From Lytechinus pictus (Eukaryota), in NCBI RefSeq assembly GCF_037042905.1, contig NC_087245.1, forward strand, positions 26,042,001 through 26,106,000: 64,000 nt of DNA, read 5' to 3'. The notes below the pieces were generated by a model, which ran no database searches, was not told where the DNA came from, and saw nothing but the letters and a program-made list of their open reading frames with translations. This document shows positions 55,301-58,300 of the stretch, one piece after another; within the stretch, counting starts at the first letter, position 1, and each line of letters opens with the position of its first letter. Position numbers and translations under genes: made by a program.

Positions 55301-58300
55301 GATTGTGATATTATTGGAGCCTTATACTGATTGAATTGGCCAGGACCCCGTCTTATAAAGAGTTGTCACAAATTCTAATCAATCTCAAGTTTCCAGTTAT
55401 CTAAATTTGTGTAGTTAAGAGACAGGAACTTCAGATCAATTGCAATTTGAGTTTGATATAATATATCGCAATCTTTGTAAGACGAGGCCCAGTTTGTAGG
55501 TAACCCATGTCCAAAATGATCTCTTTGATATATTCATGGATATTTTAAAACATGTCTTTATATGCACTTAGATCATGCATTTACAATGTAACAGAGGTGC
55601 ATCATGAATTGCTTCTAATTCCTGCTTTGAAAGTGAATACCTTCACTAGGTATCATGGAAAAATTGTGAATGAAAAAATAGACTGCCACCATCAGGTATT
55701 CCTATTTGTGCATGCATGTTTCAGCTATGAGCACCTAGAGACAAGTTATTCCATTTGCCTGCTTTATGTAGTAAATAGAACTGGTTGTTTGGAATCTATT
55801 TTGCATTAATTCTGTGATGCTATGTCAGGAAATCCCTAAAGAGTTGCATGTCAGTGTGTTTTCTATCTTAGTTTAATTTTCTTTTATCTGCCCGTGCTCA
55901 GATTATATCCACAAACCAGTTTTTGCATGTTATAATATATAGCATTTACGAGGCGCCGATTATCTAGTTGCCTATTCAATGGAGCACTATATATTACCCC
56001 TGCTTATAAAGCTCTTGTACTCTTATTTAATTGTTAGATTGAGGCTTTGTATTTTTATTCATCCCCTTGCAGATATCTTATATGGGCTGATTGGGGAGCC
56101 GAGCCTAAAATAGAACGATCCCTTCTTAACGGCGAGAATAGGACTGCCATTGTAAATAGTAGCAGAATCAACTGGCCAAATGGCTTGGTCATTGATTTTA
56201 TCACAGACATGCTGTACTGGTGTGATGCAGGTCATAATAACATAGCCAGAGTGGATTTGAACGGTGCCAACTATCAACTTATCTCGAGCAATGTCCCTCA
56301 CATCAATGATCCTTTTGCTATCACATTGAGCCAACAATACCTCTACTTCACCGACAGGTTTGTCATTTCCTTTTTATTTTCCTTCGTTGGTTGATTTTTT
56401 TGTATTATACTTTTCTCAAGTGATGATGATGCTGATGATGATAAACATCATTTGTTAACAGCATAATTACCATATATCTGTGAAAAAATATCAAAGATGC
56501 TGACTTAGACAATATATTACCCATAATTCACACAGTTGCTGGAAAGATAGGTCTTTGATTTGAAGATTTGAAGGGGTCAAGCTTGTTAAATTATGAAGTG
56601 ATCACATATTATTCTTTTGTCTCATATGATTTCCTGCTTTTCAATATTTAAAAGCATTGAAAAATATCACACAACCAAATATGAAACCTAAGAAATAAGT
56701 ATTGAATTTATTAAAACTCCAATGACCATGTAGGAGTTTTCTTTGTTGATTTTACATGTATTTAATAGCAAAACGAGCATAAGCATGATATATCTGTGCT
56801 CAGGAAATGACCATTTATTTGTTGCTCTTGTTTATTGTTATTTTGTTGCTAGGACGTCGGGTTCCGGGTCCATCTATCGTATGAACAAGGATGGAAACGA
56901 CACTGGGAAAATGATGAAAGGTGGTATTGGGGTAGCAGTCAAAGATGTCCATGTATACAGTATCAACAGCCAACCAGATAAGTATTTTCTCCTCTTAACT
57001 GTCAATATAAATGACAAAATGTGTTTTTCATAGTACATAAATTACGTCATTTTAACTCTGTTGATTGATAAGAATTACTCTGTCAAAGCAATGAAAGATG
57101 ATTAATCATTTTGTAGTTCATACTTTTTAAGATATACTGTATGTTGATGTATATCTGACAGTTGCCTCTAATTAGTATTATAGATTAGAGAGATATCTTT
57201 TTCCAGTTTTGCTATTCAAAAGAAAACAAGTGAGAGGTTGAAAGGTGTATATTTACTTTTTTTTCATTTTTTGTGCTTTTGTTGAATACGTAGTGATATG
57301 AACCCTTGCAGTGTAAACAATGGAAACTGTTCTCAGATCTGTTTTTATCTTGGAGAAAGAAAAAGAATGTGTGCGTGTGCTCATGGAACGGTAGCAGAGG
57401 ATGGAATGAACTGCGAGGGTAAGTTAGATTCAGTGAGGTTCATAAAAAGAGCAAGGTATCAATAGCTAGGATTTGAACAAATTATAGGCATGTTGTTTCA
57501 GCAACAAAGTGCTAACAGATTTGTCTGTACAGCAGCTTCATATGTATTGTCTGAAAATGACCTATAAACTTTCCTCATCCGTGTGAAGATTTGTCAATGT
57601 TATGTGAAAAGTAGTTCAGTATCAGTCACTCTGTATTAAACGGTTTGCCCAAATTGAAACAGTCTTTGGTACTCTTTCTTGCTCAGATCTTCTGCTTTAA
57701 CCCTCAATCTCCCGGGGTATTTTGATTCTTGTCATTCCGGGGGGGGGGGGGGGGGGGGCATTATGGCCCCCCCTTAAGATCTCGGCCGCTGATCACTCGA
57801 GCGACGCAAAAATTTGCACGCTGGTTGTGTGCAATGTAATCTACAAGGCTGTATGGTAAAATTTTCCAAAATAATGAGATTTTATTTTATATGAATTAAT
57901 TATGCTAATTTATGCATAAATCATACTTTTTGCTCTAATTCACTAAATAAAGCTCCTAGAATGCTAATTTTTGGTTAAAATATTCTTTGTAGCATTCTTA
58001 ACAATCGCAATAAAAAAAAACTTCAGTTTGGAAATCAATTTCTTATGTATTTTATTGTTTTATGAATTTCTTATGTATTTCCTTGTTTTTTTTACTTCTT
58101 GTTTTTTTATTGTTTTTTCAATGGAAATCGTTCCAGACTTAATTCTGATCATAAGCAAGGCAAAATTAATTAAATTCAATCAGTAAAAGTAGAAATAATG
58201 ATACATTTATGAATTTTGGCTAAATACACAATTTGCATTGGATTTGTACATGAAATCACGTTTGTGAGCAATTTTGGGTCTGACATGCACTTACATAATG

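Follow-up and report, generated by a model that had tools for sequence, protein, structure and literature searches.

In this article, I describe an intron in the sea-urchin LRP1 gene that begins with AT and ends with AC, that is supported by spliced RNA and that, judging from its motifs, very probably belongs to the major (U2-type) class, making it in all likelihood an added case of the known, very rare group called 'AT-AC type II'. The original prediction had proposed a true U2-type AT-AC intron from the genomic letters, and this reading is now backed by three runs that hold the spliced RNA, as well as by the anatomy of its donor and acceptor. In a survey of five species, 24 U2-type AT-AC introns were counted (15 in human, 6 in mouse and 3 in fly), most of them in sodium-channel genes (Sheth et al., 2006; PMC1557818), and in the portions of this literature available to me their origin has so far been explained either as relic or as U12-derived. 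With its RNA support, and with orthologues of the GT-AG kind on either side of the bilaterian tree, the urchin intron offers a polarised case in which the two ends have changed in compensation; if this is true, type II introns are also created anew, and not merely inherited, by a path held to be blocked (Lin et al., 2010; PMC2831892).

The intron and its host gene

All positions refer to the window, which is the whole stretch of 64,000 nucleotides that was analyzed, and the features needed for the argument are these:

10202..63409, + strand: N-terminal part of the LRP1 gene, with 47 coding exons predicted (gene model, collinear tblastn)
56853..56977, + strand: upstream exon, closing the fifth YWTD propeller, last letters CCAG (RNA joints, contig pieces 56851-56977)
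56975..56985, + strand: 5' splice site CAG/ATAAGTAT, pairing with U1 everywhere but +1 (the genome's own U1 5' end)
56978..57289, + strand: AT-AC intron, phase 1, 312 nt (RNA joint 56977→57290)
56982..56983, + strand: GT at +5/+6, donor of the shifted reading, use not seen (no joint listed)
57250..57256, + strand: candidate major-type branch point TATTTAC, A at 57255 (-35), predicted from the letters
57256..57281, + strand: polypyrimidine tract (sequence; within the AG-free zone)
57287..57289, + strand: 3' splice site TAC/, the sole AC past the candidate branch point (RNA joint, sequence)
57290..57418, + strand: downstream EGF exon (RNA contig pieces 57290-57418)
57292..57293, + strand: exonic AG at +3/+4, acceptor of the shifted reading, use not seen (first AG past the branch point)

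The 47-exon model comprises 2501 codons with no stop, its boundaries being set by phase and splice score and RNA-checked only near the AT-AC intron. The best collinear tblastn chain is that of carp LRP1 (32 segments, 52% identity), with a chain score of 2121 vs 1123 for horse LRP2, and by this homology the host gene is sea-urchin LRP1, not LRP2 or LRP4/5/6; the AT-AC intron separates the fifth propeller from the EGF module that follows. The LRP1 protein matches listed (120 of 778) are all vertebrate, no near-identical LRP1 protein is found among the 150 matches listed, and the search for close echinoderm LRP1 proteins returned 7 distant matches among 32 candidates. Two further protein searches matched, in one collection, none of three window ORFs and, in the other, a single candidate that was not significant; the PDB search matched only LRP6, LRP2 and clotting-factor EGF domains.

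The model has three LDL-A (complement-type) exons before the first EGF pair (10202-12453), and vertebrate LRP1 has two LDL-A repeats in that place. Further along, one LDL-A repeat (38125-39122) is interrupted by an intron after 38196, its neighbouring repeats being single-exon, and an intronic open frame at 14678-14965 carries a repeated peptide motif (GPVNL...ITGPTM...) that is probably a tandem repeat.

The ends of the intron can be read in two ways. In the AT-AC reading it starts with ATAAGTAT and stops with GAATAC, and the protein runs QP-GSDMNPC; in the reading shifted by four nucleotides (56982-57293) it has GTATTT at its 5' end and CGTAG at its 3' end, and the protein would run QP-DNDMNPC. 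Both were predicted to span 312 nt, to keep frame and to encode these peptides, and on re-reading the sequence they do. The locus is thereby an annotation trap, for a GT-AG-only predictor calls the in-frame wrong junction with D-N instead of G-S, and a GT-AG pair lying close to a non-canonical site is a described cause of mis-annotation (PMC4176328). The propeller-to-EGF junctions after 29845, 33700, 48053, 52502 and 62026 are indeed GT-AG and phase 1 in the 47-exon model, as had been claimed, but the phase argument alone is weak because phase 1 is that of the majority of the gene's introns. Nor does the shifted in-frame GT-AG pair appear very special within the modelled gene: GT stands at +5 in 28/46 donors, AG at exon +3/+4 in 4/46 acceptors and a matched in-frame shifted pair at 2 of the 46 introns, and because of the last two frequencies the exonic AG could be there by chance. 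The ordinary GT-AG intron 33701-34645 also has such a pair, shifted by 4 nt, and so provides a control from nature for the idea of a slide.

RNA evidence for the joint

The RNA test region was 56030-57620, and 4 of 24 listed runs were aligned. X22 is a raw RNA run, X1 is a contig run with the same organism label from another study, and X15 is a related organism's contig run; the latter two are presumed to be RNA, introns being skipped in both. The junction check proposed with the original prediction found the joint 56977→57290, with ends AT..AC, in all three, and in X22 it is crossed by 10 reads with 10 start points and a short side of up to 73 letters. The joint in the mRNA is CCAG/GTAG, and it is free of microhomology, with 0 letters fitting both sides. 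Read depth in X22 is zero at 57002-57271 compared with 6-18 across the exons, no intron retention was seen in this run, a neighbouring GT-AG intron was also recovered in the RNA alignment as a control, and the loose end of the EGF-exon RNA contig matches the next exon at 58619. Two artefactual sources of the joint were considered and rejected: there is no repeat at the joint that would permit template switching, and, as to antisense misreading, the mate orientation is shared between junction and exon reads, and a reading of the reverse complement would be non-canonical.

The idea that a 4-nt intron slide is in progress, with GT(+5)-AG(+4) used beside AT-AC to make a D-N isoform, found no support in the same data. 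Neither the joint 56981→57294 nor its cross products are listed in the three RNA runs (about 10 junction reads, at a threshold of 3 reads), and the two places tallied with G>A in X22, 56253 and 56931, are not diagnostic for the shifted joint; with both of them elsewhere, the shifted isoform lies below the 3-read listing threshold. Rare variants are lost from contigs, and 0/10 shifted junction reads carries a 95% bound that still permits up to about 26% (my own calculation), while both readings are in frame and the exonic AG is the first after the branch point, all of which leaves the slide some room. However, the GT(+5) donor has a 5/11 match to U1 and a duplex of -4.4 kcal/mol, weaker by this energy than all 46 modelled donors, and the same geometry occurs at the ordinary intron 33700/34646, and I regard a slide under way as decidedly unlikely.

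The junction-read check, which established the AT-AC joint, is blind to an assembly error at 56978/57289, because a true GT...AG intron in this position yields identical mRNA. I therefore take A56978 and C57289 as probably genuine on the assembly, on an argument from probability and on the unusually strong donor. If the assembly held a G→A and a G→C error at the intron ends (or a private double variant), the true intron would be an ordinary GT-AG one, the junction reads would be the same either way, and the terminal bases are known from the assembly, in which (812 Mb) the locus is single copy. However, this would need two independent errors at exactly the first and last base that happen to form a compensating pair, a double error that should be much less frequent than genuine type II introns, whose rate is 0.003-0.008%, and it would leave unexplained the best U1 match of 46 donors. 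A relative's DNA contig (56664-57428), which extends over both intron ends, has one C>G unplaced in 56724-57620, and this difference would need to lie at 57289, a weak point against an error. On these grounds an assembly error is very unlikely.

The spliceosome involved

The genome has genes for U1 and, above the cut-off, for U11, U12 and U6atac, and removal by the major spliceosome nonetheless appears most likely, despite the minor snRNAs, because the donor fits U1 and the U12 donor and branch motifs are absent. The prediction of a full U1-type donor except at +1 held to the letter, with CAG/ATAAGTAT matching the genome's own U1 5' end at 10/10 other positions, a match unique among the 46 modelled donors (the remaining 45 score 4-9) and having a probability of 0.003 in an independent-position model from the other 45 donors, where donor strength is my own match count to U1 and not a SpliceRack score. 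ATAAGT is also the donor consensus of U2-type AT-AC introns (PMC5029451). At the other end, the candidate branch point TATTTAC lies directly 5' of the pyrimidine tract, and no AG occurs from 57245 to 57291. The intron thus combines the marks of the U2-type AT-AC class, namely AT...AC ends in RNA, an ATAAGT donor with G at +5, a pyrimidine tract and no U12 consensus, and of the marks of the U12 type it shows neither donor nor branch, the minor snRNA genes alone being present.

Were this a degenerate AT-AC intron of the U12 type, with the minor spliceosome removing it, the terminal dinucleotides would be accounted for, since such ends are typical of minor introns, and U11, U12 and U6atac genes are there. 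The donor nevertheless is without ATCCTT and has G at +5, matching the U12 donor consensus (RTATCCTTT) at 5/9 with a U11 duplex of only -2.0 kcal/mol. The absence of a U12 branch motif near the acceptor was also correctly foreseen, the best match to TTCCTTRAC being 5/9, no better than in neighbouring GT-AG introns; elsewhere in the gene, introns score 4-7 on this consensus, so that 5/9 is the background level. Together with the long pyrimidine tract and the U2-type outgroup introns described below, these points make a minor-class intron highly improbable. Editing of A+1 to inosine in the pre-mRNA, read as G, merits mention too, as editing of AT-AG to GT-AG is known for some human introns (PMC4176328), but +1 editing leaves the AC acceptor unaccounted for and the local fold is weak (-8.3 kcal/mol over 100 nt), which makes it extremely unlikely.

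The U1 snRNA genes include a tandem array of at least 33 genes with a spacing of about 1405 nt (G000:C2:31961190-32010256), and dispersed U1 copies belong to a slightly different score class. Full-length copies of the minor snRNAs number 4 for U12, 3 for U11 and 2 for U6atac (C4, C7, C9, C20, C1, C6), the second U6atac copy carrying a 2-nt insertion near its 5' end. A predicted GC-AG intron at 31984-32862 has the donor TGG/GCAAGTAT (31981-31991), which gives the gene one more non-GT donor that matches U1 strongly.

For the major spliceosome to remove an AT-AC intron, U1 would pair with the donor in an 11-nt helix, perfect save for +1, and the strength of this helix would offset the mismatch there, while U2 and U2AF would act on a branch point and pyrimidine tract of the ordinary kind. 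When the exons are ligated, the intron's first base would pair with its last as A-C instead of G-G, and the AC would be used over the first AG, 4 nt downstream, because the last intron base pairs with the first; such an A(+1)-C(-1) pair has been modelled, not observed, in the P complex (bioRxiv 10.1101/212811).

Origin of the AT-AC ends and comparison with known introns

Of the 135 related loci in a metagenome scan that used the EGF exon, 80 were kept; each of these was chained to reference proteins, and 25 and then 12 were inspected. At least 12 genomic loci are LRP1 at the junction, 5 with the intron and 7 without. Two fish-like loci (L011 and L012), which group with carp (100/98), and two loci of the protostome clade (L054 and L072) have the orthologous intron as GT-AG, in phase 1 inside a Gly codon, and all four of these donors are U2-type; in a further locus, L023, the acceptor end alone is covered, and it is AG, again in phase 1 in the Gly codon. 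L023, L054 and L072 are placed in the protostome clade with support of 97/99. The intron is absent from the insect-like loci L013, L014, L016-L019 and L039, some of which are duplicates, L039 being the sole intron-less locus placed in the tree, beside mosquito, and the outgroup set amounts to about two independent LRP1 lineages. At the matching junction, the LRP2-like loci L029 and L078 also have a GT-AG, phase 1, U2-type intron. In the fish-like L011 and L012, the intron that comes after the EGF exon is missing.

From this comparison, the simplest history, which I consider probable, is that an ancestral U2-type GT-AG intron became AT-AC on the urchin line; the switch would then have been natural and lineage-specific, with the intron probably remaining under the major spliceosome throughout. 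I prefer a derived GT-AG→AT-AC switch to a relic or a U12 conversion because the LRP1 and LRP2-like orthologues are U2-type GT-AG. A real U2-type intron of another origin is unlikely, whether by conversion from U12, as a relic, or by a single G+1→A after which an in-frame AC already present 6 nt upstream took over as acceptor. The first two have been proposed in print, with type II introns said to derive from U12 AT-AC introns (Lin et al., 2010; PMC2831892) or to be relics (Sheth et al., 2006; PMC1557818), the midpoint-rooted tree with its long LRP2 branch puts the window outside vertebrates and protostomes (87/82), and a 6-nt acceptor shift would explain two extra codons in the EGF exon. Against relic or U12 ancestry, however, U2-type GT-AG introns are found in vertebrates and the protostome clade as well as in the LRP2-like loci and the sister modules, and since this is so and the host is an echinoid (bindin match E 1.5e-67), several parallel conversions would be needed. 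The acceptor move in turn is opposed by TG, not AG, 6 nt downstream, by the retained Gly codon and by linker lengths that differ among junctions.

At its start (57292-57300) the EGF exon is two codons longer than in vertebrate or protostome LRP1, with G-S-D-M-N vs G-T-N, and these codons may be linked to the altered splice sites or may be independent of them. Gly stands at the junction in 120/120 vertebrate LRP1 proteins listed, but a protein argument based on it is weak because Asp takes this residue in 2 insect-like loci and Gly is missing in tick, mosquito and limpet.

If the derived switch is correct, an ancient U2-type GT-AG phase-1 intron changed at both ends on the lineage to the urchin, and Lin et al. 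(2010; PMC2831892) argued that a U2 subtype switch needs simultaneous mutations. Were G+1→A the first step, some in-frame product could have been kept through AT-AG and GT(+5)-AG(+4), and G-1→C as the second step would have restored the terminal pair and removed the out-of-frame AG. Through the in-frame GT(+5)/AG(+4) pair, the single-mutant intermediate (A...AG) may have retained part of its function; alternatively, the exonic AG may now be the U2AF35 anchor. This AG (+3/+4) is absent from all five LRP1 outgroup acceptors, which is suggestive for the path of change.

No report of an LRP1 AT-AC intron was found in the paper listings and main-text passages searched, and the available sections of PMC11347168, PMC10639083 and PMC7072748 hold no LRP1 case. 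As an internal control, the urchin's own genome was searched for the sodium-channel domain PF06512, but no match resulted and the outcome was uninformative. The named type II cases are SCN4A intron 21 and SCN5A in human, other sodium-channel genes and TAF2 (PMC1557818), and the urchin intron is like the known ones in its AT/AC ends, its ATAAGT donor with G+5, its major-type 3' end and its freedom from U12 motifs. It differs in its setting, an echinoderm LRP1, LRP being unnamed in the main text of PMC1557818, and in its history, for the known type II introns are described as conserved across species whereas the urchin intron has GT-AG orthologues in vertebrates and the protostome clade. With U12-type AT-AC introns it shares the terminal dinucleotides, and minor snRNA genes are present in the urchin genome, but it has neither the ATATCCTTT donor nor the TTCCTTRAC branch consensus (consensus per PMC6259924). 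The AT-AC/GT-AG subtype switching of the Burge model (as given in PMC2831892) likewise changes both terminal bases at an orthologous intron, but that model was described for U12 introns and the urchin intron appears to be U2-type. A further parallel is the engineered suppressor pair of G+1→A and G-1→C in yeast and human introns, where the same terminal changes are rescued by first-to-last pairing (PMC1557818; bioRxiv 10.1101/212811); compared with that pair, the urchin AT-AC is natural, is the sole form seen in RNA and has a near-perfect U1 helix.
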